A stretch of DNA of 63,953 bases, filler included, from Bipalium vagum (Eukaryota): NCBI GenBank assembly GCA_037834085.1. It is 3 parts of 3 records of this genome, joined end to end, with 100 filler letters (N's around TTAATTAATTAA, not from the genome) between each part and the next. Parts side by side here need not be neighbours in the genome. Positions count along the whole stretch, not along the records: positions 20,136 to 46,906 come from JBBMKC010130755.1; 2 more parts are not named here. One strand, written 5' to 3'. The position numbers and the translations under genes are program-made. Under the pieces are notes generated by a model. The model saw only the letters and a list, made by a program, of their open reading frames with translations. It searched no databases and was not told the origin of the DNA. Below are positions 4,479-63,710 of the stretch, piece after piece. Each line of letters begins with the position of its first letter. Position 1 is the first letter of the stretch.

Positions 4479-4789
4479 GCGAATAAAAAAAGCAAAATGG
4501 CAACAATTAATAACCACAATTACATAAAATTAAAAAATGAGACATAGATTTTTATTAATTACAAAGGAAAAACAAAAGTTTTATGTTTAAACATTAAAAA
4601 TTATTTTGGTTTCTTTTAAAATTTATGACTGAAATGATAATTTATATTATTTTTAAATGAATTCATAAAATCACAAAAAAAATTTTAACTTTTAAAATAT
4701 TTTTGAACAATATTTTTTGGGCATTATTTTTTTATCTTTAACCTTTTTTAAATTTCATTTAACTTTTATTGTATTTGTATTGAATTTGC

Positions 4790-5109
4790 TTTTAATAATA
4801 CATTATTCTATTTTGTTTAACTTGACGTTTTATTGTATTAATTTTTACAGATATCTGATCAATTTTGTTTCAGTGATTTTTCAGGCATTTGATTCTTTGG
4901 TTAGACAATTGATAGGGATTCTGTTAATGATTTTTATAACCATTGAATTTTAATAAATTTTATTGTAATCGTTTTGATTCAATTGGGGTGCGAATAAGGT
5001 TTTATTGTAGGAGTTTTGATTCAATTGAGTTTAAATTTGTGCAGCTGTAATAGTAAAACTAACACAACATTAAAATGTGAGGAGTTATTGATTTCAAGCG
5101 AAAGTTACA
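4790..5109 (+). mobile_element. 3' part of an LTR family 1 copy
   Basis: 4950-5109 aligns by eye to 36430-36590 (gtgcgaataa.g..ttattgt, gattcaa.ttgagtttaa.tttgtgca) and ends GTTACA. Confidence 0.7.
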
Positions 5110-6829: not shown

Positions 6830-7076
6830 AAAACCCTTTGATAATCGTCCTTGATGGATAATAATTTAAGGCTTTTTATTTTTTTGGGTTTTAAAAATCC
6901 TCTCGCGCTTAGGCTCAGTGGTCCTAAGTTAAGAAAAAATTTAACTCACTGCCATACTTAAGTTGTGAATTAAAAACAAAAAAGAAAAAATTGGAATGTG
7001 AAAAAATTACTTGATCCTCAAGTCCTGGCTTGAGTATTTACTTAATAGGTTAAAGATTAACTATGTTCTGACAACA
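6830..7076 (+). mobile_element. 3' part of an LTR family 2 copy
   Basis: aaaaatcctctcgc...ctcaagtcctggcttgagtattta aligns to 15757-15915. Confidence 0.7.
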
Positions 7077-9262: not shown

Positions 9263-12200
9263 CTACCCGATATTTTTCTTAATGACCGCCATTAGCACAA
9301 TAGAAGGACAGAAACCTGAAAATCAATATGTAAATATAAAAATATATCAATAATAAATCGTTTTCAAAACCAAAAACACAACCGAGTTCATTGACGGATT
9401 TATCCATACTCTCTTTACTGTAGAGTTTTGGTGGCATTGTCGTTCGGAACTCTACCTCATGAGCACGGCACAGAGACGACTTTTCGGAAAATAGGGTGGC
9501 CACTTGAAACAACGAACCATCAGCTGGAAATGTATCCAAGACTACTGTGCCATTGGAATGTCGGATTTGAATTCGACAGTTTTCGTATTTTGGTTTCGAG
9601 GAAGTACTGCTGCAGCAAGAAGATAGAATAGTTTTCGCTTGGGCTTTAATTTGGGACGAATTTATTGATTGATTTTTATCGGCAGAATAAAGAGGCACTG
9701 GATTGGGGACCTCCTTATGAGAAATGTTATTTTCAATGATTAAAGGAACTCCAGACAACAACCACATACACGTGTATAATATTAAAGTAAAATTGTGAGG
9801 AGCATAAGTCTTACCTGATGACTGTAATGGTGCTGATCCTCCTGCTGATGTTGTGATTGTTGCTGTTTGCGAGATTCCCGGTCGCTTGCAATTTGGAGTT
9901 TCAGTCGCTCTCTAAATTTACGGGAAAATGTGTTAAACAAATAAATAGGGGTAAAAAGATAAAATACAGATTTAAAGTCAGTACATGGGTGAGAACAGGG
10001 AAAATAGAATCGAGATAACACAGATTCATAGAGATTAAGATCAAGTATAAAGAAATTGGAAAAAGTGATGCTGAGATTGATTGTACATGAAACAGAAATA
10101 TTAGTAGAGAATAATGCAGAAGAAAAAGTGAATGATATGGAGGTTAAATGTTTTAAACGGAGAATTGGGAAAGAAAAGATTAAGAAATATGAACGGAGAT
10201 TGATAATATATGAACCAAAGAAATAAGACAAGAGACAGATTCTTCCTATTTTAGAAAATAATTTTCACATAACTAAATTTATATAAAAAACGTATGACAA
10301 TTAAAAATCCGGACAATATACCAGATAAAGAACTAAGTTTTTTCAGTTGTTTAAATTTGTTGGCCCTTGGGATTCTCATTTATTTACCGATTTAAATTTT
10401 CTTTGTTTTAGTTTGCTGCTTAAACATGTGAGTTTCAAACTTACTGTATAATTAATGTTATTAACCATTATACTCTTGAATAAGTGCTCCAAAAGAAACC
10501 AAAATGATCCTTCTCTCGACCGGATAGTCACTTGCGATGAAAAGTGGATCTATTATGTCAGCATAACCAGACGACGATCGTGGTCGTTAAAAGGGGAGCC
10601 TCTGAAAAAAAATTGAAAAAACGCAACCTTACACGAAACAAGGTTTTTATGCATTTGGTGGGATTCTCGTGGAATTATTTATCAGGAGTTTCTCAAATCC
10701 GGGGAAACCATTAATTCTGATATCTATCGTGACCTGCTAAGAAGAGTTCATGCAATTATGAAGGAAAAACGGGACACTATGATAAACCGAAAACAAGTGA
10801 ATTTTCACCAAGAAAATTTCAAGCCTCACAAATCAATGAAGAGATTGAAGGTTATTCAGGAATTGAATTGGACTCTAATGGAACATCCACCATACGATAC
10901 TTTGTCTTTTAAAATCTTCCAGAAATCTTCAATTTGGCAATATTCAGGAACGTCGCGAGGATTATTGTTCTTTCCAAAAAAATTGAATTATGTTCTCTCA
11001 TGAAGGATACTGTAGCTAAGTGTTTCGCTTACATCATCTGAATAAAATCCACAATTTTATTAATGCAGTTGGATAAAGAAAAATAGGACTTGTCGTCGAG
11101 GATCCAATTCAAGTTATTGAAATCTTTATACAAATAACTGCACCTGCTTTTAATAATTGATCGTTGTTTGTCTGTACGTGGTTGGATGGTTATTCTTTTT
11201 CCATATTTGATACTGCTTTTCTTTTTCAATGCCTTTGATATAAGTTGTAGGTTGCAGTTACATTTTTTTGGCGAGCATACGTTGAAATATTCCCATCTTG
11301 TTGTTAACAGACCTCTTTAACAGCTACATTTTCCTATTTGACATTTTAACCGGCTTACGCCCGCTTCCAACTTTTCGCAAAGGTCAAAATTTTTCTGCAA
11401 GATAGTATTGTCATAAATAGTTGACTAAATACAGGAGACATTCTATTTATACCACCAAATCAAGTGGTCGAAATCTAGAGATTTGTACATAAAGAAATCA
11501 TCAAGACGTGTGATACGTATGTTACTTTATTAGTATAAATTAAAAATATTTTATATTAACATATTTCAATCTAAGTTTTGGGCGAATTCACTTTAACAAC
11601 CCAAAATCCGGATCAATTAAATATCACAACACCGCCACACAACCAGTTAAATCTGACAACCCCATTAGACAACCGATAATTAATTAAATTAAGAACATAT
11701 ATTCATTGATTTTTATTTTTCTAAATTTTGTATTGTAGCTGCTTTAAAAGAAGTGTCAACAATGGTTAAAACTCATGTTGGTACAATTGACATTCTTCCT
11801 CTGTGAACTTTGACATTGTGATTTATTTTTGTTTCATCAGATCGCACTGTTTGACCAGGGCCACCTAATCTTAATGGATTGGTTAACCAATATTTTTTGA
11901 TATTTGAAATTAGAAATTTTCTAAGTCTAATGTAGACTGGGACTGATACCCTTCATTCTTGTTTAATTTCAGTAAGCTATTTTCACATGCCCACAAAGTT
12001 TTTAATCAAATTACCAAAACTTATTAAATTTTTTAATGAAATTATCCAGAAACATGGTAATCACAAGTTAAAGGACCAAATGTAGAAGTGGTACAAATCA
12101 GAGGTTAGACTGTAGTAATAGAAATGAGTGACAATAATAATTATCGATTTTATTTTTCTAATCTAATAGAATACCTGTACAATCGATCTTCCTCCTTTTC

Positions 12201-15409: not shown

Positions 15410-16860
15410 GATGAGTCCTTGGGTCGTTCTATGAGTGTTTTTCAGGTCACCTATGGATTGCCAAACTCGTTGGGTCCCTTGATAAATCTGTTTGTATCGT
15501 CGTCATAAATGTAAATATGTTAAGATCCTAAAAGGTGGATAGATGTTAAAAAGTGGAGCTTACTGTGTTTAGGTCTTACCGTTTATTTATTTATTTACTT
15601 AATAACCTGTTTGTTAATATTATGTAAAGTGATTGAGAGAACGATTTGATTTTTTTATAACTTATATTTTTATTAAAATAAAGTATAAATTTACAAACGA
15701 GTGATATCGTCCCTGATTAATTGAAAAAGAAGTTATTAATTATATTTATTGTTATGAAAAATCCTCTCGCTCTTAGACTCAGAGGTCCTCGATAAAGAAG
15801 AAAAATTTATCTCATCGCCCTACTTAGCGTGTGAAATAACAAAAGAAAAATAAAAAGGTAAAAGGAACTGAGATGAAAAAATTATATAATTCTCAGGTTC
15901 TGACCTGAGTATTTATTTATTTATTTTAAATAATCTGTGCGTTGTCTAACAAGAAACACTTGTATTAATTAAAATCAAACGATATAAAATAGCTTTTACG
16001 ATCAAATCTATAAATTTACTTAATTATTATTATTTAATATGAATCGAATCTATAAATTTACTAATATATTATTATCAAGGGACTAGTCTTGACAACTCTT
16101 GGTTTCAAGCTAGTATAAATTAATGATATAAAAAGTTAGTGAAGTCTGATAAGGATACTAAAATAATATTATAGATTAATAGTGTAAATAAAGTTTGTTA
16201 TACAAGTGCAACAAGTTGAGAATAAAAAAATAATAAAATTTACTATATTTAATTCAAAAGCATAAGCTGAAATAAAGCATGAACTGTTTATTTATGAAAT
16301 TTTTGTGATTTTCTTTTCTGCTTTATATATTTGGTACGACTTTGATTTTTGACTCTGATGTGGGCCTGTGACTCTGATTGTTGAATTCGTTTTAACTCTC
16401 TGGTGTGGACCTTTAGTTGAGTAGGTTGGATGCTGTAATTTTTGGTCAGTTGGAATGTTCGTCTGTAGGTATTGATTGATAATTTTCAATCCGTTGGAGT
16501 GTTTAAACTTGTTTTTGTAAGTAGCATCTGAACATAACTCTGTCTTTAGTCAACTTTCCTTTTCTTCTGACTGCTTATGCTTTTCTTTTCTTTTTATATT
16601 AAATCACCAATCACTACGCTTTGAGACGGCTATTTCCCTTAATATTCTGACATTAATCATAACTTTATCTCCACGCCGAGATAGTTAGTTAAAAATTAAA
16701 GAAAAACAAAATAATTTATTATCCCGACGACGGGACATATCTCTTAGCAAAAAATCTAATTAAGCAATATATCATTATCTCGACGACCAGTTTTTGATGT
16801 ATTGCTTTTTAGAATATTTAAAAAATTTCGACTTTTTAAATTAATATTAATATTATTACA
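15410..16860 (-). mobile_element. Fragmented LTR family 1 copy (5' end at 16860, structured core at 15412-15489) interrupted by a family 2 LTR
   Basis: 16600-16860 matches 27520-27699 and the reverse complement of 35690-35790. 15412-15489 matches 27165-27243. Confidence 0.7.
15518..15951 (+). mobile_element. Solo LTR, family 2
   Basis: Termini TGTTAAGA...TCTAACA. The 5' part recurs at 63818 and the 3' part at 6830-7076. No clear TSD. Confidence 0.7.
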
Positions 16861-19539: not shown

Positions 19540-19960
19540 TGTCTTTTCAGTAGCACAATTATCAATGTTTGAAACCGGACTGACAGTCCGTGATGTTTCA
19601 GAAAAATGAAATTATCAACCAGAACAGTCCAAAAATAGTGGTCATATTTTATAAATGACATTGTGAACTTGCAAAGTGGATCTGGTAGACCAAGAAAAAC
19701 AAAAGCACACCAAGATGCTCATTTAGTATTAAATCAAATCGTTATTGGAGATGGAAAATCTTCGCCCACGACCATCTTTATTTTGAATGTCTTCATCTCC
19801 ATCCTTAAATCTCTGGAACCAGCGTTGAGCGCTACGTTAGCTAGCGGTACCTTCTTAAAAAATGCGATTGATATTTCGAGCGGTTTGTGCAGCATTTCCA
19901 CCTATTTTGAATTCATATAAGAAAACTGCTCTAATTTGGGAGTTGTCAATGATTATTGAA
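19540..19960. mobile_element. Tc1 HTH fragment (+, 19540-19720) abutting a mariner HTH fragment (-, 19750-19950)
   Basis: 19565-19650 is nearly identical to the reverse complement of 63620-63700. Minus strand reads IRAVFLYEFKIG...AQRWFQRFKDGDED. Confidence 0.8.
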
Positions 19961-20454: not shown

Positions 20455-21630
20455 TCATTCTACTTTTGCGTATTCTTCCCTAGGCAGTGACTCTAAACTT
20501 TCAATGTGTAACATGCGTTTTTCATTTGTAGCGTTATTTTCCTCATTATCATTTATAATATTTATTTTAGGCGTTAGTGATGGACAACTTTTCTGTAAGT
20601 GTCCAAATTTTCCGCAAATAAAACATTTAACCTTTCCCTCAATATTCACTTGTTGACGTTGGGATAGATTAAAATTTATACTTCTGCAAACATCTTTTAC
20701 ATGTCTTCTTTTTCCGCATTGAAAACATTGCAAATTGTGCGCTCTACATTCGTTTGCGGTATGGTTTCGTCGTGCACATTTGGTACATTGTTTATTATTA
20801 TTATTAAAATCGAATTGCTTATTTCCATTATTATATTCAAATGGTTTATTTCAATTATTATAATTATTCCTATTTTGGTAGTAATTCATTGGTGCTCTCA
20901 TTTGGTTACGTTGGTTACTTCCATTTAAAACATTATAAAGTTTAGTGGAGTATTCGTTATATAGACCTCTTTTATCTACCAGACATTCTCGGGCTCCATG
21001 ATCCATTTTATTACACTTATAAAATTGTATTGGATTATTATTATTTACTTTAATTGGTGATTTTGACCTTAATCCGGAGGACTGTTTTATTATTATTAAT
21101 GTTTTCATTGCAACAGCAGTTTAGGCTAATTTTGCCTTCTCCAATTATTTGCTCAAACGCTTCATGTCTATATAGCATGACAGCTGCTTTAATTTCATAT
21201 CTTAATCCTGACCACCCTTGATCTTTTACTATAACTTTAGTATTTTCTTCCCATTTATCTTGTAAACCAAAAGCTCTCTGGGCTATTGTTCTTAAATTAA
21301 GTGTATAATCTGATATTGTTTCATATATTTTTTGATTTAAGCTATGAAATTGTTACCTGAATAAATGGCCTTTGTCACCTGTGAAAATCTGTTCCTCTAA
21401 CGCGGCTTTAACTGATGCCCAATTATCATCTTTCTCTTTGGCTACTATATCTAAATATGCGTCTCTTGCTACACCTTTTAAGTAAATGGGAAGTCGGTTC
21501 ATTATTACTTTTTCATTAAAACCATATGCGCGCATTTTTATTTAATAATTTGATAAAAAATCGGGTAACTCAGCTGGGTTTCTATTATATGTATCCATTT
21601 TAATATAACCGGTTTACGTGTTACCATTGT
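20455..21630 (-). mobile_element. Ty3/Gypsy gag pseudogene
   Basis: Capsid-like LPIYLKGVARDAY...W..VK.AL and QKIYETISDY; zinc knuckles CFQCGKRRHVKDVC and CFICGKFGHLQKSC plus a degenerate third; in-frame stops. Confidence 0.85.
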
Positions 21631-23229: not shown

Positions 23230-26200
23230 TTTATAAAACAAATTTGACGTACACAAGGCTTCTAAATTAAATTAACAAGCACAAGTGTCATAGATAACCA
23301 GCATGGCTTTCTGATAAATTTCATTCAGCGGAATAATTGGTTTTCTTCAGTCTATATAAAATTAACCAAATATCCAGTAGCATGGAAGTTCCAAATCTTC
23401 GCCGATTGCTCAATATTTGATATTGCACATGATTTTAGAAGTACACTTGATTTCCTTTTTGATTATTATGTCTATTGTTACATAGTAATGTATCGTCCCA
23501 AGAGATCCAATAATCAGCGTCTTCAGTTGGATATTATAATCAGGTTTTATCAGTTTAATTTTTTTCTTCAAGTCCGAATACTTTACGATATTTTTATTTT
23601 CACTTATATCAAAGTTTCGTAAAGAGTCAATTAGACATTTTAAATCAACTAAGTAAATAATCTTTTTCTCTACGTTTGTAATGATTAAATCTATTCTCTC
23701 TTTTGAGTCTAGAATATCTTGATATTGCATATTTTTCTGAACAATCAGTTCTGGTCTTTGAAGTTCCTCGAAGATTTTTTCCATGAAAATATCATGTCTT
23801 TGTCCAATGAAGGAAAGATTTCTCTTGCAAACCTGCAGCACATGACTCATTGATTCCTTCTCAGAATCAAAATGTCTGTGTAGGCGTGACTGATCTTCCT
23901 TAATGGCTTTGGGAACAAATCTGAAGCTAAAACTTCCCAGTACTCCGGGAAAAAATGCTCTTGTTTGTTGATGGACATAGATTATAGATCCTTGCAAAGA
24001 AATTACTCCATCCAATGTTTTCCCACTTTACTACATAAGCATCATAAATGGATTGATACAATATGTGAAATACCCCATTACGATTATTAGGCAGGATTAG
24101 GTAGGTGCCACGAATGTTGTGAGTTACTCGCAGGCAAATTTCTTCTTTTATCACTTCAAAACTACAAGTGTTTTGATGACGTGTGGAAAGAAATTTAATA
24201 GCGCTTCTGATTTGGATGCACCATATTTTTTCGATTCTTGGTTGTTTTCTATCTTTTTTCCATTTAGCCATTCTAAGCAATCAGCTGTTGTCGGATTATC
24301 TATTCTCAGTCTTTGTCTACGCACATAAGATAATGAATCACGAATAATTCCATCTGTAAAATTGCAGAAAGAATTCAAAAGTCGAAATCTTTGAACTAAT
24401 GACTGAATCGAATATTTGTCGTGCAGATCAGTGAAACCGGCACCTCTATATGAAATTGACGAATAATGATGACATTTTTCAAAATTTCTAGGCAATTGTA
24501 GTATTTTTCTCAAGTATTATCTTAATTTACTACTATTATTATCATTATAGATTTTATTGTTGACAGGATTTCCAGTAGCTTTGATTTTTATTTCTCTGGT
24601 TCAAAATGCGAATGGGATCCTGGAATGTAAAAAAACTTTATATGCTTTTATCATTTGCCAATTAGCAAGATCCATGTTTACTAGTGTCAATAATTAATTT
24701 GCTTAGCAACTCGTAGATCGTTTTTATCACCTACAGGAACTCCTAGATATTGATAAAATTCCTTGCCCCTTATCTTTTTAATCTTGGAATTTTAGATGTC
24801 AATTTCAATACCATCGTCATTTTGTGGCAAGCTCAAAAGTGAACATTTTTCTAGTCTAAATTCTAATCCAATCCAATCAGTTATTTCAATTGCCTTTTTG
24901 ATAAGATTTTAAAGGTTCTCGTCATTGTCCGAAATCAATGCTATCTCATCCGCGTAAGGAAGGACTTTTACTTCTGATTGACCGATTAAGAAGCCTGAAG
25001 GTGGTAAGGAGTGTACAAATTCCAAGACTGGATTGATTGCAATTGAGAATGGTGACATCGATAACGGACACCCTTGAAGAACCACTTTGAGCATTGGAAT
25101 ATTTGGGGTAACGATGTTGCCACAAGTATAGATTAGAATTGCAGATTTACTTTCAAGGCTTTCTAAAAAGAATTTTTCCAGCTATTTTGAAATTGTAGTT
25201 TTCAACTGATATGATATTTTTATAAATTCTTTGCTTATCTCCGAAGCCACCAAAATTTGCTAATTTAACATTTTTGTTTTGCAAATTCATAGCTTTCTCT
25301 CTGATTTGGTGTATAAATTCTACTTTAAAAGAGTTATGTTATTTATTATTGATTTGTTTAAATAAATACTTTTCACTTTCACGTGTTATATTTTATACTG
25401 TTATGAAGAACGAATTAACTAAAAGAAAAGGATTTATCAGTAGCCTGCCGCGTGATAAATATACTGTTTACACGCAGATGAAGGGTCCATAGTCGTAATT
25501 GTTACCTTGACGTATAATATCTGGATATGGAGAAACACACATCAGGCAGTTCATATTGAATATTTTGTTAACATTAAAATTTAGAGTTTTTGTAAATTTG
25601 AGAACTATGTCCGATTTAAAATGCTCCATGTGGAACGACTGTTTGGCATCTTTATGATAGATAAATAGAACCATATGTTAGTTGATAATGTTGAAAGGAA
25701 AATATATATTGTTTTGGCTGAGTGAGCTTCAGGTGAGAGTTTGAGATTGTCACATTGATCAGTTGAGGCCAGAAAAAAACAGTAACCGGATTTAGATCAT
25801 AATGATTTTCACAATTTAAGAATGTGGCCAAAAACCAATGAATATCTGAGTCAGTGAACCAAGATTGATGATGTACAAAAATCAAGTCAACAATTTGTCT
25901 TCGTAAAATTTGCTGCTCGAGTACGACTCGAAATAGTATTATTAGGTTTCAAGATATGATTTTTTGTGAGATTCCTCATACACTACTTTCAAAGGTCAGT
26001 ATTTTCATCGTTCATATTATCAGTTCTTCTAAATTTTTTGTTGTTGCATAATGTACATATTTCATATTTACTGAGCTTCTCAACTTCTTTTATATACTTT
26101 TGCCAAATTTCTATGGCTCAGCTGATTGGCTCCTATGTTGCTTAATAGAGGCTGCTGATTCCGGAGTTTAGAACTGATTGTCATGAAGATCCTCAGGTAA

Positions 26201-26270: not shown

Positions 26271-26670
26271 TCACTTGATATAAAATTTTGACTTTTGTGA
26301 TCTACCCACAGCCCATAAATGTAATAAATGGACACATTTATTTAGATGTATTTTGAATTTCTCAAGAAAAGAATTTTCTTCTAATAGAAAAATATCTATT
26401 GTAATTTATGCAATTTTTCGTGTAGCACCGCCATAAAACACAACCTGTTTCTTTTTGATGTGCATTCCTTGAATATCGTTCCACAATCATCGCATTTATC
26501 TACAATCATTAATATTATTATAAATTACCTAATAGGAATAACAGACTGTTTTCTTTTAAAAACATAATTGCATCGGATGGAACACCCATCGCTTTGCTGT
26601 TAATTAATTTAATGTTCATATTTTTGTTATCAACATGGAAAAATTGATATCGGTCAAAAAAAACATGATC
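26270..26670 (-). mobile_element. Merlin 5' fragment nested in the NeSL-like element
   Basis: Near-identical to 33855-34200; CDDCG...WRC..KNC...FSIR zinc ribbon; TIR GATCATGTTTTTTTGAC. Confidence 0.85.
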
Positions 26671-26856: not shown

Positions 26857-27699
26857 TCACAAAATTCACAATAATACTTTATCCGTACTCTAAGCGGTCA
26901 AAGCAATCACAATAAAACTTTAAATAAATCAAATAAATACAACACAGGTCAGTTCAATATGGAGGAGGATCAAATATCTTAAAAGTTATTATGACCAAAT
27001 TAATCAAAGGTCTGCACAATTATGATAAAAATGTCGAATCAAATAATATATTGTTAAAATCAAAATACACTAAATAAATGTTAATGTCGAACTTTAATGA
27101 ATTATTATCAAACAAGAAAACAAAAAACACAAAAAATTAATAATACTCTCACCGGGAGCGACAAGGGGTCCCCGGGTCGTCCACTAGGCCCTTTTCAGGT
27201 AACCTGGGGATTCCCAAATTTGCTGGGTACCCTTGTATAATCCTGCTGCTTGGTCTTTATCAAAGAAAGTAAAATTTACTTGAAACAATAAATCCGCAAC
27301 AATACTTCGCCGGTAGTAGCATTTCTTCGGCAAGTATAGATCCTCCACGTAAGTCTTCCGCAATAATTTTTTCTGACGTAAGTCTTCAACGATATTTTCT
27401 TTAACTCGCTCTGTGCAAATTTCTGGGAATAGGCATCTCTTTATATAGTCCTGTCGATTGGTCTACGATCACCAATCCCTATGCTTCTAGACGACTATGT
27501 CCATCAATATCCCATAAATCCCAACTTTATCTCCACGCCGAGATGAAGTTAGGGAAAAATTTGGAGTAATTAAAATTAATTATCCCCACGACGGGATAGA
27601 TTTCAACTTTTAATTATAAAAATTTTAAATTTCATTTTCTTTATCATTTAATATTGTTGTTATTATTATTAAAAATTCAATATTATTAATATTATTACA
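26857..27699 (-). mobile_element. LTR family 1 copy (3'-truncated)
   Basis: Starts TGTAAT; TATATAAAG box near 27440-27448; structured core 27146-27243 followed by GGTGAG; colinear with 35562-36500. Confidence 0.8.
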
Positions 27700-27738
27700 A
27701 ACATCATGGTTTGTGCCTTTGGCAAACCTAACAATTTT
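27700..27738. repeat. 21-nt hairpin GGTTTGTGCCTTTGGCAAACC with conserved flank
   Basis: Inverted copy at 35523-35561. Confidence 0.9.
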
Positions 27739-30441: not shown

Positions 30442-33400
30442 CTATTCGGTTTTATGTGATTTCAAGTCTAAAACAGTCATTTCTTTTTCATTGAGACCTA
30501 TTTCTTGATAGTCTTCCTCTAAAACCTTCATATTAAAGCGTGATTCTCCGAACTCAAACTCTTCCATTCCTTCTTGTATGAACCAGTGAATGAATGCTCT
30601 CTTGTGAAAAAGTAAATCAAATTTCCTGCCCAGTCTCACCCATACGTCCCTTATTGCAGTAGTATTACAAATCATTGTTACACCTTTATTTGAAAAAGCA
30701 ACTTCCGAATCGGGGACAATTATAGGACATTGTGGATTTATATTTATCTTATAACCAGTAGGACACCATTCTACAAAATTCGATGTCTTAGCTTTTTGCT
30801 TGTTTACTGCTTCGGCTACTTCTCTTGTACTAAGAGATCCTCTGTAATTAAGAATTATTGCCATGTACCTTCCACGAAGGGTATCACATTTAACGGACTG
30901 GTGAGTTTTAGAAAATACCATTTTTGTTATTTGATCAGCAGTATAATTAGAATATATTGTGCGAGATTTATGGTCTAATGGAGCATGACTGACCATTGGA
31001 AAATGAATTCTTGGATAAGGTATTAAATTTGTTCTGATTTCTTTAAGGGATGTACTTGCAGTGGCCTCGTAACGCAAGGAGCATGTTATTGAGCTTATCA
31101 TTAGAGCCAAAAGTCTATTGAGATCATTATATTGTGGGGAATGGATCAAAAGTAACTTTGAGCAAATATCGTATAATGCTTCGTTATCAAATAAAACAGC
31201 TAAATCACCAGTGTCTACAGAAGTATGAACATGAAATATTGTGTTATATGGTTCAACTATAGCAGTATTCATCACTGGACCGGAAAATAAAGGTATTTGA
31301 ATTCTAGTTACTTTTAAAAAATCCAAAGCAAGTTGCTGCAATAAAAGAGATCCAATACCTGATCCAGATCCACCCCCTGCACTGTTCAGAATTAGGAAAC
31401 TTTCTAAGTTATTTGTCTGTTCTAAAATTTTTCTTATTTGAGCTTTTATTTTTTTCAACAGAGAAACTCCAGAATAAAAGCTACCCCTTGCAAAATTATT
31501 AGCAGCATCTTCTTGCCCACTTATTAGTTGATCTGGATGAAATAGATTTTTGTAAACTCCACTACGAATTTCTTCTATAAAAGACACTTTTAACTTGATT
31601 ATTATGGTTTTAAATGATTATCACCTATGACTGTGGGTTCAGAATCTAAAAATATAACTCGAGGACAATACTTTCCATCTTTAACTTCTTGGAAAAATGT
31701 TTTCATCAAAATGTCATCTTCCTTTAAAAAATTTTCCCCGTCTGGACCAATTCCATGTTCAACACAAAATAGTTCCCATATTGCATTTCCAATTTGAATA
31801 CCGCATTGACCAATATGGATAACAAATATTTCTGTAGACTTAATGACAGTAAAATTAGGTTTATTAAATATAAATAAATAAATAAATATTTGATTAGTAA
31901 ATAAAATTTGTAATATATAAGATTAATATATAAAAACTAAAATAAGAGACTCGTGACGGTTAAGGGCCTGTTAGCTTTAAAGAATGAGGAAGTGAGATAA
32001 ATTAAAATTAGTCTGGGGATGTATCTCAGCGGTCAGAGCAGTCCATTCGCAATTTCTTCAAAATTGTGGGTGGAGGAAGACTCGATCTGCAATCAAACAA
32101 ATGCAGTCCAGACACAAGATCACTGTCAAATTCGAGCGCAATGAAAAGGGAATATGTCTAAAATTCTTTCAACATTTGGACCCAAGTTATGAAAATGAAG
32201 CAATTGTGAAGCCAATTGATGCAAAAGTTGTTTCGAAAAAGCTTTGAAATCACAGTTGGAACAACCAAGCAAGTGCAGGTCGCTTTGCAACGGCAATTGG
32301 CCAATCAAAATAATCAACTACTCCAATTTTCAACGGTGCAATATCAATTGCAGCTTGGTATATCATTCATCGAGCTAAGTCATATTCAATTCAGATCAAT
32401 GCTCGCCATGGCTTAAAATTCCGTAGATGCCGAAGATCCAATGAGCAAGAAGAGACATTGCCTCATGTTCTTGTTGATTGCATTCCATCAAAATATTTCA
32501 AAACTCCCGGCATAATTCTATCCAAGACTATCTGGCCAAACAAATTAAAGAGAATTCAAAGGCCAAATAAAGTCAACTTTTCAACTAATATATATATGAC
32601 CAGATCTGTTTTTGCTGAATATCAATTATAAAATAATAATTTATTTAATTATTTGTGTAACTAATTATTTATTTTTATGGCATTAACTGGAAATCTCCTA
32701 AGAATATAAAACTAATTAAAATTAATGTTACGATAGATGTCGCTTAATTATATAATTTCCATTTGATTCCACAGTCGTTGACCATCACTCCGTCAAACTT
32801 TTAAAATATTGAAAAGTTTTAAATGTTTTTCACCAAAGAACTGTTCTAGTTCCGATTTCATTTGATTCATATCCAAGAATTTTTTCGTGGATAATAACCT
32901 AGATAAATAATAATCAGGTAGGTCACAGTCGTGAGAATACGGAAGATGTTCAAGAATTTCTTTTCATTTTTAAAAAATTTTTTATTACCTTTTTGTCAGT
33001 GAAATGTCACCCACTCTCTGTTTATTAATGTTGGTCTACCTACTTTAACAACAACTGTCAAACGACTTGATTGTTCGTAGTTCATATATGCATTAATAGT
33101 CTTATCAATCTTTAACATTTTCAAATTAGTTATTCCAATTTAGTTCCACCAAATACATAATAATTCCTTCTTTGCTTATAAACTTGGATTGAGATTATGT
33201 TTTAGTAAAACTGGTGATAATTTAATGATATTAAAGTTTTATTAATACTTATTTAATAATTTATTAGTTTAGTTTCAAATTTTTAATCTTTTATGTTATC
33301 AAAAGTTCTACAGGTAAAATAAATTATTAATTTCTCAACATCTGTATTTCATTCGGAGTTCTCCATTAAAAAATTATAATTATATATTTGTTAATTATTA

Positions 33401-36400
33401 TTTTATTTATTCTTGGTTATACTGCAATATTCTAGTCTCATATTGAAATAATCATACACTGATCAGAGAATATTTTGTTTCTCTTACTTCTAATAGGTAG
33501 TAGACTTGATATTATGAACAGCTCTACTAGATATCTTACTTCGTCCACCCACCCGACTCCCCAACCGTTCATCTATTTTAGATAAAGTTGGCCTGATTCA
33601 TGGCCTGACATTTCATTTTCTTCTGCAAGTTATTTTCCTATTTATTTGAGGTTCTTTGTGATTCTTACAAAATCTTACGTCTGATCAGTTTCTCTGAAAC
33701 TTTCTTTGGTATCTTTTAAATTATCTTTTTTTGTATCCTTGGTTGAGTTTTTCGTGTTGATTTATTATAACTAAAGCACTAAATTTTATCCATATGACAA
33801 TGCCATTTCCAATCAGTAACAGAATTTGTTCAAAAATAAGAGTATTTTCAAAGTTTTTTTTTGACCGGTCTCAATTTTTCATGTTGATAATAAAGAAATG
33901 AATATTAAATTCATAAACAGCATATTGATGGGTGTTCTATCCAATGCAATTATTGTTTTATAGGAATAACAGTCTGTTATTCCTATCATATAATTTATAA
34001 TAATATTAATGATTTTAGATAAATGCGATGATTGTGGAGCGATATTCAAGGAATGCACATCAAAAAGAAACACGCTGCTACACGAAAAATTGCATAAATT
34101 ACAATAGATATTTTTCTATTAGAAGAAAATTCTTTTCTTGAGAAATTCAAAATACATCTAAATAAATGTCTCCATTTATTACATCTATGGGTCCTGTGTA
34201 AATCAAAAAACTGAGTTACTAAAGACACGAGCGTTTCAAAATCATTCATTATTAATTTCTGAAAAGAAATGAGGAAAAATGTGAGATTTTTTTCTTGAAA
34301 AATCCAATAAAAATGGGCGGACCCATCTTCGTTCTCCAAGGATGTGTTCCTGATTATGAGTTATCGATTTTTGGTAAGGTTGATGACTCCAAGAATGCAA
34401 ACATATTTTTGAAGTTATTAATGAGTGATGAAGTTATAATGAGTTATAATGAAGTTATAATGATTGAAGTTATAATGAGTGATGAATGGAGAGCCTATTC
34501 TCAACTGTCTAAAGATGAAAATTATGTTCATCAAACTGTCAACCACAAGACGAATTTTGTTGACAGGAAGACTTGTGCTGACACACAAATAATTGAATCG
34601 ATTTGTGGGAAACTGTAAACAAAGATCGTGTCAATGAAAGGCGTCTATGATGAGCTCTTAGAATTATATCTAAATGAATCAACGTAGCGCAAAAATATTC
34701 AATGAAGAAACTGCGAATAAATTTTTTATTTAATAAATTTATAAATAGAAAATTATTTGTTTGTCATTTTTTTGTGATTCGTTTCAAGTATCTTTTTCGA
34801 CTGAGTCCGTCAAAAAAACATGATCAGTTTTTTTAAAACATAAGAAGGAAAAGGTGACTTTTTGTGAATAAATCGTTCTTGAATACCAAATTTTTATTCG
34901 TTTAAATAAGCACATTAAAACAAATCTATTAGGCAATATTATTTCTGATTTCCCAAAATTGGAATTTGAAAAAACAACCTTATTATTGATTCATTACTTA
35001 AATTTTTCGATCATCTTTTTGAAAATTTTTTTTGAAAATTTGATAAATTTAATTTCACTCATTTAAAATTAAGAGAAAAAAATCGACATCATCTGCTATA
35101 TCAATTTAATTCTTGAATATTTACAATCAAACGATGAATCTATGAAATCTGTAAGCTTGAGATTATGAACAGCACATGTAAAAGGCTGTTGCGCAATAAA
35201 CAACTCAAGCTATAAAAATGTTTTTTCAGATTTTTAGTGAGCTTGGTTGATATAAATATTAACAATTTTATTTTATATTTGTTCACAAGTAGATAAGAAA
35301 ACCAGTTTACGAGATCAATATTATTTTTAAAAATAATTTTGAGCGACTGTTGGAACCGGACCAAAATCCTTGAAAAATGAATTTAAAAATTCCACATACG
35401 CAATAACAACAGTAAGTATATCAACCCAAAAACTGCAAATACTATTCAATCTGAATAAAAATTTCTTTGTCACCCAATAAACTACTTTTCAATTTTCTTG
35501 AACTACCTACAAACTTTTTAACAAAATTGTTTGGTTTGCCAAAGGCACAAACCGTGATGATTGTAATATTAATATTAATATTAATTTAAAAAAATAAAAT
35601 TCTTATTTTATAAAAAAATTAATTAAACCTTTTAAATTGAAGATTAAAATAATTCTAAAAAGCAATTATTAATTCTAAATTATTGTTGCAAGATACATCC
35701 CAACGTGAGGACTGATTTTGATTAATTTTATCAAACTCTCTCGGTGTAGAGATAGAAGGAAATAGCCGTCTCGAGCGTAGAGATTGGTGATCGAAGACTA
35801 ATCTCTACGACTATGTGAAGAGAAGGCTATTCCAAGAAATGGGCCCAGAAAAGAGATTCGATTATTTAATCTTTTTGGATTTTTGGACTGAAGAGTTATA
35901 AGATTTGAGAACCATTGGAAACCGAAAGATTTCTGCGACTGACGAATTCAAAGGATCAGTGTTAGGTGAAAATTAATTGGAGATACCAGGATTCGAACCC
36001 AGGACCTTCACATGCGCATGCACTGCTCTGACCGCTGAGCTAAATCCCCCGACTAATTTTCAATTTATCTCACAATCAGGACTTTGTAAAAGGATTTTAC
36101 AAGGGGACCCAGCGAATTTTGGAATCCATGGATGATCTGAAAAGCCCATAGTGAACGACCCGGGTACCTCTTGTCACTCTTGGTGAGGCTATTTATCTAT
36201 TGCTTTTGTGATAATTAATTTAAAGTTATAATATTTTTCTTTAATTGTAAATTTTCTTTGGTAATTATTTCGATTGGCGATAATTAATATTTTAATTTTG
36301 AACTTTTATTCGATTACATATTTTATTTTTATTCATTTTTTGACATTTTGAGGATAGTTGAACACTTTGACGTTGTGCTTATTATATATTTGACTAATAC

Positions 36401-38030
36401 TAATTCTGTGGGTGATTGGGATTTTTGAGTGTCAATAAAATTTATTGTGATTGTCTTTGATTTAATTAGAGTGCGAATAAAGTATTATTGTGAGGTTTTT
36501 GATTCAAGTTGAGTTTAACTTTGTGCATCTACAATAGGAAAACGAGCACAACATTGTTAAATGATGAGTTATTGATTAAGAGCGAGTTACTTTGATATGG
36601 TATAATAGTAACAAAATATTCTCTATTTGAAGACAGATTTTGAAGAAACTGATTTTAGCATATCCCATAACTTTTTAAAGATAACTTAAGGGCTTCTTTA
36701 GTCAGATTTTTATTTTTCAAAAGTTTATTAATCATGATTTATATTTTGATTCACTTTAAATATTGTTTTCATTCATGATATTAATTCATTATTAATAAAA
36801 TTTATTATAATTATAATTATTGGGCTTTCATCAGATAATAATCATAATATTGTTAAAAAATAATTACAAATTTAATAATAATTAATCAGTAATAATAATA
36901 ACATAAAATATTTTTTTCAATTAAGTTCTCTTCTTCTTGGTGGGATTATTTTCCTCAAGCAGAAGATTATTTTTGCCCTAATGGGTTTTCGGGAATGGCA
37001 AAATTTTCAGGTATGTTACCGGTTTATCCTACGTGAGAAATCTCTAGAACTACGTATTAGATGTTGCAATAGAGAGATTCTATTAGTCGGTTACAGCCCG
37101 ACAAAGAGCTCGTAAAGCTGGAAAAACAGAGAGAGAAGTTTAAAATCATTTTAGTTGAAAACTGCATTGACTTATTCAAAAGCTGAACATTATCTGGTTT
37201 TTCAAAAATTACAAGGTATGAGGTTCGATGTTTTATACAGATTTCTTATACTGATCGGACTCCGAGACCAAATGACAAAAAGTGGAACTATTAGTTGGTC
37301 AAAAAACTGAGTCTCATTTTCAAATTATTGAGTAGTACAGCCTTCTTATTTGTTTTTTTTGTTATTTTAACATTTTAATTATTGTGATGTTATTCTATTT
37401 AATGAAATTTTATTGAATTATTCAAAATTAACTGTGATAGATTTTCTTAGTAATTTCCGTTGTATTTATTATCTTTTCTTATTTTATTGTGATTAATTGA
37501 TTAAGTAGTGTGGCATAGTTAAAGCGGCATTGAATTCCTCAAACACTTCCAAAACTTAAAAACTAATAAATTGTAAAATTATACATAGCATAAAAAATTA
37601 ATGCTTTTAAAACTTTAATTTTTATATATTTTCTAATTTAAAACCAATCTGTAAATTTAGACTCAGATGTCTTCACTTCACTTCAATTAACAATAAAAAC
37701 GCTAGAAAATTATCATCAAATTCTTGCTATATACAAAGACAGCTTGAAAGAAGTTACCATAACATAAGAATGTGTACTGAAATCATTAGACGGATAATAT
37801 TTAATAAAACATAATTTGTAAATTAGTTTAATGAAAATATAGATAAATTACAATACAAATGAGCTTAATTATTTTTACATGATTGCAAAATATACATTTT
37901 AATTAACTTATACGATCAAATAATTTGTTCTGGTTTTTATATACATAAATTAAAGCTAAATAATTATAAAAATAAAAGAAAATTTATAAAAATAAAACAT
38001 AAAATTAATAACAAAATGTAAGCTTACCAT
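30442..38030 (-). CDS. Divergent alpha-tubulin. Exons 31838-31625 and 31574-30442; ATG-only first exon probably at 38030-38028 (alternative at 37760)
   Basis: IHIGQCGIQIGNAIWELFCVEHGI, FHPDQLISGQEDAANNFARG, VEPYN, TNLIPYPRIHFP, FVEWCPTG, KRAFIHW..EGMEE. 50-nt intron at 31575-31624. No in-frame ATG next to acceptor ttaag|TCT; ATG|gtaagc at 38030 is inferred. Confidence 0.85.
32015..32051 (+). pseudogene. 5' half (nt 1-37) of a tRNA-Ala(CGC)-derived sequence
   Basis: GGGGATGTATCTCAGCGGTCAGAGCAGTCCATTCGCA; shares its upstream flank gtgagataaatt.aaattagtc with the 35978-36049 copy. Confidence 0.8.
32052..32580 (+). mobile_element. Second NeSL-like RLE retrotransposon fragment (RT C-terminal region to zinc knuckle)
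   Basis: WRKTRSAIKQMQSRHKITVKFE..KGICL aligns to WCIQIRSAIKFLSTRHQNTCSFE..EEICL of the 23-26 kb element; CRRSNEQEETLPHVLVDC followed by RHNSIQ. Confidence 0.8.
32740..33200 (-). mobile_element. mariner 3' fragment
   Basis: LCIWWN.IGI, EILEHLPYSHDCDLPDYYL. Confidence 0.75.
33848..34825 (+). mobile_element. Merlin transposon, decayed, both ends present
   Basis: NPIKMGGP, IMSDEWRAYSQL..YVHQTVNH..NFVD..T..TQ.IES; TIR-like tttttttgacc / gtcaaaaaaacatgatc; internal slippage repeat of gaagttataatga at 34410-34485. Confidence 0.88.
35562..36591 (+). mobile_element. Full-length solo LTR, family 1 (about 1030 bp)
   Basis: TGTAAT...GAGTTAC(t) flanked by ATGAT/TTGAT (5-bp TSD, 1 mismatch); homologous to three other loci in the window. 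Confidence 0.8.
35978..36049 (-). pseudogene. tRNA-Ala(CGC)-derived Pol III cassette (pseudo-tRNA) inside the LTR
   Basis: GGGGATTTAGCTCAGCGGTCAGAGC...CGCATGTGAAGGTCCTGGGTTCGAATCCTGGTATCTCCA. G3:U70 Ala identity pair, A and B boxes and a downstream TTTT are present; the anticodon stem does not pair. Confidence 0.85.
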
Positions 38031-41900: not shown

Positions 41901-44900
41901 TGGAAAAAAGAAATAACACAATATTATCATTAAAACAAAATAGAAATATATATTCGAAAATAATTTTTTATAACCGAATCGATCACTATTGATTATTAAT
42001 TGATTATAATTACTAATTGATTATAATTATTGATTATTATTATTAATATTTTAAAAACAATTAAAATTTACAGTTTCAATAAAAAAAATAATATTGAAAA
42101 ATCAATCGATATAAAAAAATCTTCCTATTTAAATAAAATTATTGTGAAAAAGGGACGCAAAAACATGAATCACAAACAGCTTTTCAACGATGTCCTCATG
42201 ATCCACAAAGCCCGAATGAAGACAATTGGAGAAAAGGAGACGAGGTTTTCGAGAAATAAACTTACAAATGAAATTTTTTTCTTTGGACAAAGCTTGAGAT
42301 TTAATGACAAAGGATGGAAAGAGACAGAGAAAGAAAGGATGACGGGAAATTTGAGTAATTTCAGTGGCGCGCGTTAATGAGAAATTTACTGAGGCCTAGG
42401 AATTTGTTTCCCAAGCAATTCTCTAACCTCTGAAAGAGAAGCTACAGTTAAAACGGTGAGTGAAAGAGAGACGCGGACAGTCAATGTTTTGGTAATTCCA
42501 ATTTCTTTAATAATTGATAAGTCTCTTTGTTTTTCGCAGAAGCCATGAAATCAATAGTTTTACAAATACATACCATCGGAAAACTGGCTTCTTGTTGATA
42601 AAAATAGCACCGAAAAAATCGATATAACAAATTTGATAAGATTCTTCCAACGGTGACGAAAAAATATCGACTCAAATTCAACAAAAAATTCAAAAATGAG
42701 AATCGATTTACGTAAGGTAAAAGTAATGGAATGTTGTCAATCAATAATGAACAGAATTTGTTATCCGATAGAAAAACCATCGATCAGCGATCGCCACAAA
42801 ATTTTAACGGTTTTCTTATTGGAGGGACAGAGGAGGAAGACAGAAAAGACATCCTGGAAAGGAAAGTGCATCCTCAAATATTAACAATTTTCTAACAGAA
42901 AATCTTTTAGCTAGATTAGTCGATGAGGCCAGGAAATTTTATCAAAATGAAAGGCGATGAGATATTATTAATCGATAAATAAATTTATTTTAACACTATT
43001 CAACCGAGCATGGAATTAGGTTTGTTATGACAAACCAAATCGATAGAAAAGGTAGAAGAAAAATCGATTTTAAAAAATGTCAAGCTTGAACGGGTTTTGT
43101 TTGAGAGATGAATACATAAATATCAATAATCAACAATTAACCGGAACACAGCAATGATAGTAATAATGATAACAATAAAAATCAAAAATCATGATAGATC
43201 TTGAAATCTATGATGATGTTGTTCCATTGAAAGCGTTCTTACAAAGTTCAGCGGGGCTGAGAACAACAATGAAATATAATATTGTCATAGGACAGTGCAA
43301 CAATGATTTAACAGAGTCAATCAGAACAAAGCATGTCAATAAAAATATCAATAAGCGCAACAAAAATTAACATTAACGATAGCAAATATCAATATCTCAC
43401 TTGTTAAACACGGCAGACGTGTGAGGGGACGACGGTGGTACCTGAGTATTTGGTGGCACTACTACTTCCCCGGTAGCGTTAACGATAAGTGCCTTGACGA
43501 CCTCGTTCAGTTTATTGATCAACTGAATCTTGGATGAGGACATGTAACTCCTTTCCGGGAAATAGTACTCCTTTTCTTCCCGAGTACACGTGTGGTAACG
43601 ACTGAGCCAAGTTGGCAATATCTCAATCAACTTCAGAGCACCTTTAAGAATGAGCTTGACTGGAGGGATATTGTGCGCCAGATTCCTTTCCAGTTTGTGC
43701 AAAATGTACTCTGCTACAAACCAGTGCAACTTCTCGAAATATGGGAACAGAAATCGATCTTCCGTTTGGAGCAACCTTTCTATTTTGTAAATTCTGGAAA
43801 TAAAACAACATCCGTTTTTTGTTCCGTACCAAATTCAATGAATTGATCACAAATGACCTACTTGAGCTGCAATGGAATGCTGAGAGAATGTAAAAAGTTC
43901 CCACCGAAAACCAAACTGTCTTCCACCGTGTGTACGGCATGAATCCAACCGGCGGGCAATAGAATTGTGTCGCCAGCTTTGATTTCCAGTTTATAGACTT
44001 CCGCTATATCTGGAGATGACGATGACAGCTTTTTAATTTGGTCAGGAAAGAAAATCATTCGGTTGTTATATTCGCACATCCAATTTGTGTACGCTTTTAT
44101 GTACCGTTTCCTTGGTGGGATCAGATAAAATACCTTGTGACCCTAAATTTAAAATCCATTGATATTTATTGTGTTTAGATAACCAGTATTTTTATAAATC
44201 AATTGTTGAAAAAATTCATCAAATAATCCATTAACCCAACAAAATTCACATAAACAATAAAAACACACCGAAAACACATGATACCAAACAGAAGAACCAC
44301 CGAAATCGATATGAAAATCAGTCCAGCTGTCTTTCATGCTCATGAGACAATATTTTTGAACAGAAGGCTTATTATGCATTTTGTGGATGTCATCACAAGG
44401 CCATAACTTTTCAACAATACTCATTTCTTTTATAACGTATGGTGGTTCTACCAGATGTGCTATTCTAAAATTTTAAAAAAGTAATTTAAACTTTATTTTC
44501 CTAGGAAAAAAATCCTTGCTTTGCGTGGGATATTTCCAAACTCAAAACATTTAGAATTCTCGTTCGTGGTATTCCCCGAAAGTAATTCAAAAAGTCTTCG
44601 AATCTCATTTTAAATTGATCTTGTTTCGCAACATCAATAACATCTAACATGTAATCCTTTCCTAAACTTCTTCCAACATCTTCAATTGTAAACGATGCTT
44701 CAGGTACAATTATTCGTAAACCTTTCTTTTTGTGAATAATTATGGGTTTAGTGAAGCCATTTTTGATAAAATAATCCTCAGTAACTTCTGTACCACGCAT
44801 TTCTTTTATTTGATCACCAATTCTAAAATCCTTGTGATTAAATAGAAAGTACAACATCGAATTAGCTTACGATAAGCAAGGTTTCGATAATAAAAAATCT

Positions 44901-57404: not shown

Positions 57405-58826
57405 TCATTTCTTTTTTTGGTTTTTGCCTGATGAAGACTTGTCAGATTTGTTTTTTTTACTTTTTTTAATCGATTTGTGTTCATTTTCATTGGAATTGTA
57501 CAAATGAAGAGATTTTATACAATCTAGGGTTTGATCGATTTGATTGTGCAAAGGGTTAACTGATGATTGGTGATTGATGGTATCACGGTTGGATATCAGT
57601 TTACTAATGGATTCTTGTAACGATGCTAATTTCTGATTCAAATGATGCAATTCCAAATGATTTATTGATTCGTGCTTTCTCGGCCCAGATTCCTTCACGG
57701 AAATCATTCTGCCGGACAATGAGTCGATATTTATATTCAATTCGCATTCATTGCCATTGACAATTGTTTTCGGTGACGTTTGATTCCTATGACCAGGAGA
57801 CTGAGAAAACCCATATTTATCTCGAAAAAAATCCACTCTGTTGCACAGGGGTCGGAATTTTCTTGACGATTGTACGGGCTCCCTTAGATTCCATTTACAG
57901 ATTTTAAGATTCTGGTCTAACAGTGAAAAGTTGTTTGTTTCCAATGAAAGTTCCTTACAATTTTGGGGAAAGGTTGTCCTGTTCATTGAACTGTAATTGT
58001 ATATTTTTGTTGTATTGTTATAATTACGGAGACTTTGTTGCCAGTAGTTTATGTTTGTTTCCAAATTGAATTGTTTTTCCGGTTTTGTATTCTTCAGAGA
58101 CTTTATCGAAGATTCGTGGTGAAATGGAGACGATCGATTATTTGTATAATTTATTGCTGGCAATACTCCACATTTGACCTTTTCAGCTCGTGAAGTTTGC
58201 GAATGGTTATTTTCACACAGTTCCAAGGATTCAAAAAACGTGCAAAGAGCGAAAATTTCCCTCTCAATCAAACAGAATATACTCCACAATTTCTCATGTG
58301 GTGGTAAGTCAGACTGTGAACCATGGAATCGGTCTTGGCTATCTTCATTATCTAAAGACTCCATCTCAGTTTTCGTGCAGTTTATGCACTGAAGCATTTT
58401 GTTGAATCCTTTGCTGTGTTGTGGTATATAATTCGAGTACTCCTGACCTAATACTTTCAAGACATCATTGATCAACATGTTGTGTAAGTTCCGTAATGTC
58501 TCATATATGGAAAGTTGCAGTTCGATATTTTTGAAGTCTTTATTTTCAAGAAATATTTTAGTTCCAACTGATAATGGGTTACTTTTAAGCAAATTCATTC
58601 TGATCAGATCCTTTATTTTTGTCAGATTTTTATGGTAACATTTATAGAAGTACTGGTTAATATGTTTATAAGTGCTATTGAAACTGTCGAACTGGCCTTC
58701 CAACTGAGTTCCAATGAGTTCCGCTGTGTCATGGATGAGTTGAATTCGATTCCAAAGCTTTTCAGAGTCTCTGAATCTCACAGAACGCTGCATTTTCTGA
58801 CACTTGGACTGATACTTCGTATCCAT
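57405..58826 (-). CDS. Intronless 473-aa orphan protein with coiled coils and a Lys-rich C-terminus
   Basis: 1422-nt ATG-to-TGA ORF, far too long for chance in this AT-rich DNA. No domain recognised. Confidence 0.75.
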   Translation of the reverse strand: MDTKYQSKCQKMQRSVRFRDSEKLWNRIQLIHDTAELIGTQLEGQFDSFNSTYKHINQYFYKCYHKNLTKIKDLIRMNLLKSNPLSVGTKIFLENKDFKNIELQLSIYETLRNLHNMLINDVLKVLGQEYSNYIPQHSKGFNKMLQCINCTKTEMESLDNEDSQDRFHGSQSDLPPHEKLWSIFCLIEREIFALCTFFESLELCENNHSQTSRAEKVKCGVLPAINYTNNRSSPFHHESSIKSLKNTKPEKQFNLETNINYWQQSLRNYNNTTKIYNYSSMNRTTFPQNCKELSLETNNFSLLDQNLKICKWNLREPVQSSRKFRPLCNRVDFFRDKYGFSQSPGHRNQTSPKTIVNGNECELNINIDSLSGRMISVKESGPRKHESINHLELHHLNQKLASLQESISKLISNRDTINHQSSVNPLHNQIDQTLDCIKSLHLYNSNENEHKSIKKSKKNKSDKSSSGKNQKKK

Positions 58827-62829: not shown

Positions 62830-63710
62830 ATTAAGAGTCCACAAAAATGTTTCGAGTTTTACTTGTATTACTTTGCAGTTGTAGTTGCTGGTTGCTCGTA
62901 CATTGTTGTTATACGTCGACCAAGTTGATCACACGCATGTTCGATGGGAGATATATCAGGTGAGCGTGCAGGCAATGGAAGAAGTGATACATTTCGGGCA
63001 TTCAAAACATCACCCACTATTTTGGCAGTTTGCGGCTTTGAATTACTGTGTTGCATCATAAGATGATGCTGTTCAGTATTTGGAATGATGTGCTGGTTGA
63101 TAATTTCCTTCAATAAACGTGCAGCATTTAATGTAACATCAATAGTAACTGCAGCTGTTATACCATTCCACCATACAAAATAACATAATACTTGCATCCC
63201 ATACCTATCAATCTGCTCTATTTACCAATCTGCATATCTCTAGGTTTTCTAGCGTCTGACCCTTATCCAACCATCATTGAAGTCCAGTGAAAATCTGGAT
63301 TCATCTATCTATAATTTAGACTTCCATTTATTGCTGTTGCAATTTAGATGTTCTTTTGTCTAGTTCAGACATCTATTGCTTTGCATATATAAAGAATATT
63401 CTCACAGCTTCAAGATCTGATTCATATCCTGCACCTAATACCCTGCGTCTAGCTGTCTCCATTGAACATTTTAAATTATTATCTGTGATTTACTCTTTAC
63501 CAATAAGTGACATTGATTTGAATCTTTTTCCTTTATTTTTAGTAATAAATGAGCATTCTGTTGAGTACTTGTTTTTCTTGGTCTGCCATATTCACTATAT
63601 TTTCCTTCTTTTTTAAATTGTGACCATCATTTTTGGACTGTTCCGGTTGATAATTTCATTTTTTCTGAAACATCACGAACAAGTCAGTCCGGCTTCAAGC
63701 ATGTCTTTAA
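62830..63710 (-). mobile_element. Tc1 transposase pseudogene
   Basis: DESRFSL, MQHSNSKPQTA, LPLPARSPDISPIEHACD. Confidence 0.9.

Follow-up and report, generated by a model that had tools for sequence, protein, structure and literature searches.

A tRNA-bearing element nested in a larger repeat of Bipalium vagum is probably the solo LTR of a Helenus-type miniature retrotransposon

Within the window (the whole 63,953-nucleotide stretch of Bipalium vagum DNA analysed here, filler included), positions 35960-36074 are best explained as the solo LTR of a miniature non-autonomous retrotransposon of the Helenus type (TRIMp3) that inserted into an older and larger LTR, a reading to which we assign a probability of about three in four (0.77). 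If it is correct, in a full element Pol III would start from the A and B boxes of the 5' LTR and would sometimes read through a run of four T, the RNA would be packaged and reverse-transcribed by a helper LTR retrotransposon, and the integrase of that helper would make the 5-bp duplication. Recombination from LTR to LTR would then leave a single LTR between the duplicated bases, and the position inside the larger LTR would be that of an ordinary nested insertion. Retention of the tRNA part as a putative promoter would account for intact boxes together with a dead anticodon arm.

Results

Ends, duplication and second copy of the element

On the window strand the segment reads ATCAG, a TG from 35960, 115 bases in all to the CA at 36074, and ATCAG again (Table 1). 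Identical 5-mers at the spacing of the element occur at 234 of 63,122 window positions (0.37%), and such a repeat combined with TG...CA ends comes to about 1 in 100,000 position-spacing pairs. A shorter duplication of 4 bp (TCAG) was considered and dropped, since it would break the TG...CA end. Read in the direction of its tRNA part, the element has a fixed CA as its 3' end (at 35960), with the duplication directly next to it and no A-rich or simple-repeat tail, and 25 nt preceding the start of the tRNA are common to the family and stop at a fixed TG.

The sequence-only reading of this DNA had placed the unit at 35968-36073; these limits are here corrected to 35960-36074, which gives the unit TG...CA ends and a 5-bp direct repeat of its own. 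That reading had also noted that about 23 nt upstream of the tRNA are shared with a copy near 32015, and these bases are indeed spanned by the match between 31992-32051 and 36013-36073 (90% over 61 columns, E 4e-18), beyond which the second copy has one mismatch at 31991, the end position of the element. Because the similarity of the second copy stops at the same end, and the element has TG...CA ends of its own, the supposed 23-nt flank belongs to the 5' part of the element itself. The shared bases do mean movement in an LTR-type element, as had been proposed, but the mobile unit is the 115-bp piece and not the host LTR; the copy near 32015 lies outside any host repeat.

Table 1. Positions of the tRNA-bearing element, its parts and associated features in the window
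Feature	Position	Strand	Evidence or remark
tRNA-bearing element, TG...CA ends, read as solo Helenus-type TRIM LTR	35960..36074	-	ends, length, depth and loose-end borders
Target-site duplication, left copy ATCAG	35955..35959	+	direct repeat
Target-site duplication, right copy ATCAG	36075..36079	+	direct repeat
25-nt U3-like 5' part of element	36050..36074	-	match to second copy; depth
tRNA-Ala(CGC)-like core	35978..36049	-	Rfam match, boxes, stem pairing
A box	36042-36032	-	inside tRNA-like core
B box	35998-35989	-	inside tRNA-like core
G3:U70 pair	36047:35981	-	inside tRNA-like core
CGC at anticodon place	36016-36014	-	inside tRNA-like core
TTTT within element, Pol III terminator-like, part of 11-bp inverted repeat with 5' part	35969..35972	-	
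Second copy, first 61 bp of element, cut after anticodon	31991..32051	+	sequence match
GC-rich piece (46% versus 7% upstream), assigned to longer forms of element	31945..31990	+	recurring motif, TGTTAG, purines
Recurring 20-bp motif	31945-31964	+	matched in another contig
TGTTAG	31969	+	candidate start of 137-bp LTR
Purine-rich tract, PPT-like or U3 of longer LTR	31979-31990	+	11/12 purines
Host repeat, likely larger solo LTR, TGTT...TAACA ends, 4-bp AAAT direct repeat	35528..36613	.	homology limits
Sister of host repeat without tRNA element	26857..27738	-	alignment, 76-82% in four blocks
5'-truncated decayed non-LTR retrotransposon piece, CCHC knuckle and start of restriction-like endonuclease	32052..32670 (right end approximate)	+	tblastn

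A tRNA-like core with a broken anticodon arm

A search of the entire window against Rfam gave one match, RF00005 (tRNA), on the minus strand at 35978-36049 (38.8 bits against a gathering threshold of 29, E 1.2e-4), in which the anticodon arm was left unaligned; ARAGORN called 0 tRNA genes in the window. Pairing is retained in the acceptor stem (6 of 7 pairs), the D stem (4 of 4) and the T stem (5 of 5, two of them G-U), the discriminator A is present, and the run of four T starts five bases past the tRNA body. In the anticodon stem only 1 of 5 pairs forms, and position 33 is G instead of U, so that the core lacks the intact cloverleaf, the paired anticodon stem and the U33 of a functional tRNA-Ala gene. 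A G3:U70 pair is the mark of alanine tRNAs. All of what had earlier been noticed here, namely that the A box, B box, G3:U70 pair and TTTT are kept and the anticodon stem is broken, was thus seen again. Folded alone, the 115-bp unit gives no sign of selected structure (z -0.72).

Abundance and dispersal

Depth and flanks were taken from the assembled contigs of one public sequencing run (X1), which may be the window's own sample and therefore shows breadth over the genome rather than giving independent support; summed contig depth, moreover, is not copy number. The fine depth profile and the variant counts are based on the 3,201 contigs matched to 35943-36092. Depth rises on the left from 23.5 at 35943-52 to 3,055 at 35958-62, reaches 348,093 at 36028-32, lies between 125,082 and 254,128 across 36053-36072 in the U3-like part (125,082 at 36068-72), and falls on the right to 778 at 36078-82 and 38-66 further out. 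The host repeat has depths of 965-1,691 at 36110-36379 and 119-257 at 35840-35947, so that the peak of the element stands about 200-fold over the host bins of 965-1,691. As rough ratios to single-copy depth, the peak comes to about 15,000, the 5' end to 5,300, the region near the 3' end to 680 and the host to 5-70; genuine tRNA-Ala genes may add to the depth of the core, but not to that of the 5' part.

Contigs leave the element at its two ends. Loose ends, counted in the best-supported 6 of 139 rows, number 64 contigs at 35960 and 380 (194, 74 and 112) at 36074-36076, and their agreement of 0.40-0.45 at both borders is low, which argues that most flanks of the copies are unrelated. Six of the eight long pieces among those listed start at 35960, and the window's own two junctions are spanned by contigs without differences at single-copy depth (35637-36008 at 23.5 and 36050-36232 at 26.9). 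A further 192 contigs, in the same best-supported 6 of 139 rows, break at 36005/36007, where the window copy seems to be one base shorter, and the 3' half therefore owes its lower depth at least in part to an artefact.

Only five places vary in at least 5% of the matched contigs. None of them lies in the A box or in U3; one is in the B box (5%) and one in the anticodon stem (31%), and at 35988, 36001 and 36043 the window copy departs from most other copies. The family looks homogeneous, and the broken anticodon stem looks family-wide. The proposal that the boxes should be better conserved than their flanks gained nothing from these counts: among the matched contigs the U3 flank is conserved as well as the boxes, and the comparison does not discriminate. 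A scan of metagenomes for the 5'-end pattern of the element gave 0 matches.

Signs of sequence beyond the short LTR

At 31945, 46 bp ahead of the second copy, GC content steps from 7% to 46%, and since this 46-bp GC-rich piece recurs elsewhere with the element, longer forms exist. One line of evidence is the majority sequence of the 194 loose ends behind 36074, which has 12 of 15 letters, all four C among them, in common with 31976-31990 read on the reverse strand; this agreement has a probability of about 6e-6 by composition, was noticed post hoc in the best-supported 6 of 139 loose-end rows, and came to 11 of 15 in another pass over the contigs. For C to win columns among AT-rich flanks, roughly a fifth of the loose-end contigs must share the stretch. 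In one contig, moreover, the 38 letters between two element pieces match 31945-31964 at 19 of 20 positions. The window contains a single instance of this 20-bp motif, and 0 of 100 shuffles contain it; a metagenome scan found it twice, both times in contigs of 49-55% GC without other similarity, and we treated these matches as chance.

The GC-rich piece can be parsed in either of two ways. The LTR may start at 31991, in which case 31979-31990 would be a polypurine tract: 12-mers as purine-rich as this make up 0.3% of the window, and purines fill 11 of the 12 positions in the window copy and 8 of 12 in the majority sequence (best-supported 6 of 139 loose-end rows). Or a 137-bp LTR may start at the TGTTAG of 31969 and the purine tract would belong to U3; all 6 bp of TGTTAG match the 3' end of the element in inverted orientation, which in 50 bp has a chance probability of 0.9%. 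An attempt to read 31935-31975 as a decayed copy of the element's A box was rejected, 593 of 2,000 shuffles having scored as well. Direct double copies of the element were present in 3 of the 3,201 contigs, a number that dense dispersal could also yield, and no intact two-LTR element was seen in the window or in the contigs of the run. The 64 loose ends before 35960 (best-supported 6 of 139 rows) carry no shared signal of a primer-binding site and have an AT-rich majority, at an end that is under-sampled owing to the 192 contigs breaking at 36005/36007 and in data in which collapsed repeats are under-counted.

The host repeat and its sister

Homology between the host repeat and its sister begins at 35523-35528, the left end being shared with the sister at 27733, and the right end of the host at 36613 is where homology with a third piece (4943-5135) ends; a 4-mer repeat at the host's spacing is found at 0.9% of window positions. 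The placement of the unit inside a solo LTR is reasonable given the ends and the AAAT repeat, although the limits of that LTR are wider than proposed, likely 35528-36613, and the antisense orientation given for the unit is putative. Likewise, the sister, which had been given as 26857-27699, does lack the unit, but its homology reaches 27733-27738 and it offers no clean empty allele, a role that we ruled out as it is too diverged and poorly alignable around the insertion site.

A terminal 8-mer, TGTTAGGT, is common to the end of the host family, as seen in the sister, and to the 3' end of the element (35528-35535, 27726-27733 and 35960-35967). This 8-mer marks both ends as LTR-type termini, and its sharing hints at a possible relation between the integrases. 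The duplications differ, at 4 bp for the host and 5 bp for the element (one site each).

The host repeat also contains a GC-rich block at 35749-35849 with a long inverted repeat seen by eye. Depth within it reaches 19,321 in the bin 35786-35839, more than ten times that of the rest of the host, and 8,707 was found at 36488-36541; these high-depth bins are motifs that a wider group of LTRs has in common. The host family has other fragments at 4943-5135, 15415-15503 and 16602-16858.

Alternative origins

Of the other explanations, the one that survives best, improbable as we consider it, is a MITE, that is, an inverted-repeat DNA transposon with a tRNA-derived core, moved for example by a Ginger-type integrase-like transposase. 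Such transposases give TG...CA ends and duplications of 4-5 bp. The ends, the fixed length and the 5-bp duplication of the element would suit this origin, as would the inverted repeat of 11 bp around the core (11 of 14 bases match), the hairpin of -31.7 kcal/mol into which the whole unit folds, and the lack of a primer-binding-site signal in the loose ends before 35960 (best-supported 6 of 139 rows). The inverted repeat is subterminal, however, with only three terminal bases inverted in the short form (six in the longer parse), and the family sequence continues on one side only, which fits an LTR with an internal part or a longer LTR. The layout, moreover, matches that of Helenus LTRs, and a literature search for Ginger elements or MITEs with a tRNA, covering titles and abstract openings among the matches listed, returned no such element.

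Still less probable is that the unit is an ordinary SINE or processed pseudogene derived from tRNA-Ala, for all that high abundance, dispersal and Pol III boxes are what a SINE would show and that tRNA-derived SINEs exist in flatworms (from tRNA-Gln in Schistosoma mansoni, according to the part of PMC2770079 drawn on here). Against it stand the 25 nt ahead of the tRNA start, present throughout the family up to a fixed TG, the fixed CA 3' end without an A or simple-repeat tail, and the shortness of the 5-bp duplication. Dispersal of copies without regard to the host LTR, each with a duplication and a tail of its own, had been named beforehand as the mark of an ordinary SINE: the dispersal and one duplication are present, but the tail is absent, and the view that the unit is no ordinary SINE holds on account of its fixed upstream part and missing tail.

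Capture of a tRNA gene by a subfamily of the large LTR, which then spread it as an insulator, antisense-RNA source or primer/decoy, was the sequence-only reading's own proposal and is now barely credible, for although the unit does lie in a likely solo LTR whose sister lacks it, it has its own duplication scar, sharp depth ends and single-copy junction contigs, its depth exceeds that of the best bins of the roughly 1-kb host LTR about 200-fold with mostly unrelated flanks, its copy near 32015 is outside the host repeat, and the suggested roles found no support in the analysis.

Discussion

The solo-LTR reading draws on the resemblance of the element to Helenus, a tRNA-containing TRIM for which the class TRIMp3 has been proposed (Kojima, 2024; PMC10886601). 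In the sections of that paper drawn on here, Helenus LTRs are described as 104-323 bp long, with TG...CA ends, a tRNA-like core in sense orientation, conserved boxes and mostly non-functional tRNAs; of the 8 animal LTR ends examined, 7 have a run of 4-6 T between the tRNA core and the terminal CA, and solo LTRs with TSDs are described. The element has the same short TG...CA layout (at 115 bp it falls within the range), a sense tRNA core, retained A and B boxes and a T run, and it likewise would be a solo LTR with a TSD. In contrast, its TSD is 5 bp at the one site, within the general 4-6 bp, as against 4 bp in each of the 113 animal families of Helenus for which a value is given (two more being undetermined) and 5 bp in fungal and plant families, and its host is a flatworm, of which there is none in Table 1 or S1 of the paper (PMC10886601). 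Two short internal motifs of the element gave 0 matches in the portion of the Helenus supplement used. Going by this layout, the element likely works like Helenus, and membership in Helenus is likely as well.

Other TRIMs share some of these traits. Ajax and Cassandra also have a Pol III promoter inside the LTR, and Ajax, a TRIMp3 of animals, has 5-bp TSDs, but their promoter comes from 5S rRNA, unlike the tRNA-derived core of the element (PMC10886601, same sections). Among flatworms, ta-TRIM of taeniid cestodes is a non-autonomous LTR element of which there are numerous solo LTRs, one of them embedded in a larger repeat; the excerpts of PMC4558846 drawn on here contain no mention of "polymerase III" and no tRNA-derived core. 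Its TSDs in E. multilocularis are 4 bp in 52 of 57 cases and 5 bp in the remaining 5 of 57, and in Taenia 5 bp in 10 of 10 (PMC4558846). Since a family with 4-bp duplications thus has 5 of 57 at 5 bp, a single site cannot fix the TSD length of the family to which the element belongs.

No flatworm Helenus or other flatworm tRNA-bearing TRIM was found in the literature searched, outside which lie Repbase, bioRxiv supplements and subscription journals that may hold one; the portions used of PMC7962491, PMC13570524, PMC12859917, PMC2770079 and bioRxiv 10.64898/2025.12.11.693146 contain no flatworm Helenus. If our reading is right, Helenus-type elements would extend to a host group absent from Kojima (2024; PMC10886601, as far as its sections drawn on here go), and the thousands of tRNA-Ala-like matches in the genome would be transposon ends and not genes. 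The window adds the nested insertion with a clean scar, the contrast in abundance to the host LTR and the first indications that family sequence extends past the short LTR. The abundance of the element may exceed that of LTR-11_DR, at 5,575 LTRs the largest Helenus family given in those sections. Pol III transcription from a TRIMp3 LTR is there described as shown only for Cassandra, and a homogeneous and very abundant family would be well suited to answering the question left open in the paper, whether the LTRs are real Pol III promoters (PMC10886601). The same family could show how transcripts get past the T run of the first LTR, and its thousands of A- and B-box pairs could putatively bind TFIIIC.

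A more far-reaching version of the solo-LTR reading strikes us as rather unlikely in its entirety. It would make the element an animal (probably flatworm) tRNA-bearing TRIM whose TSDs are 5 bp family-wide, which, if true, would point to a different helper and hence to another integrase lineage (Bel/Pao, Copia or 5-bp Gypsy) than in all described animal Helenus. Such a family would have about ten thousand LTRs in short and long forms, and its decoy tRNA genes would now be hit by a tRNA-targeting retrotransposon of the R5/LIN type.

Non-LTR retrotransposons and other features of the window

The non-LTR retrotransposon piece at 32052 begins directly after the anticodon of the second element copy. 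Its tblastn match to P0121, an element with RT and Ulp1 protease, is weak (E 8e-5, 21% over 151 aa), and the 3' half of the tRNA unit was not found downstream of the piece, whose 3' end is missing. In planarians, LIN15_SM and LIN25_SM, of the R5/LIN lineage in the NeSL clade, target tRNA genes (Arg and Glu; PMC4640811, in the part drawn on here), and this makes tRNA targeting by the family of the 32052 piece plausible. The piece is of the same broad type and adjoins tRNA-like sequence; that part of PMC4640811 names no tRNA-Ala target. At 23358-25876 on the minus strand lies a decayed NeSL/R5-like element with an Ulp1-like protease, RT and restriction-like endonuclease, whose RT and endonuclease parts are 39-57% identical to P0121; Rfam found no tRNA-like neighbour of it in the window.

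The window has a GC content of 28% and is AT-rich animal DNA with menin, tubulin, jumonji and zinc-finger pieces. These include menin exons at 3524-4529, gag-type zinc knuckles at 20455-20850, an exon of the jumonji helical domain at 43397-43834, and a divergent, stop-free alpha-tubulin frame of 391 aa at 30442-31617 (minus strand), which is 39-50% identical to tubulins across eukaryotes among the matches listed and 65% to P0016. Pieces of a mariner-type transposase (10617-11003) and an ISXO2-like transposase (34256-34618) are present as well. Two pairs of inverted repeats join 26293-26663 with 33855-34210 (87% identical) and 19565-19733 with 63538-63702 (79%), and a dispersed pair at 6763-7044 and 15625-15919 is 72% identical, with a GC-richer conserved core, a small hairpin and no Rfam match. 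On the minus strand at 57405-58826, an open frame of 473 aa has neither a Pfam family nor an atlas match.
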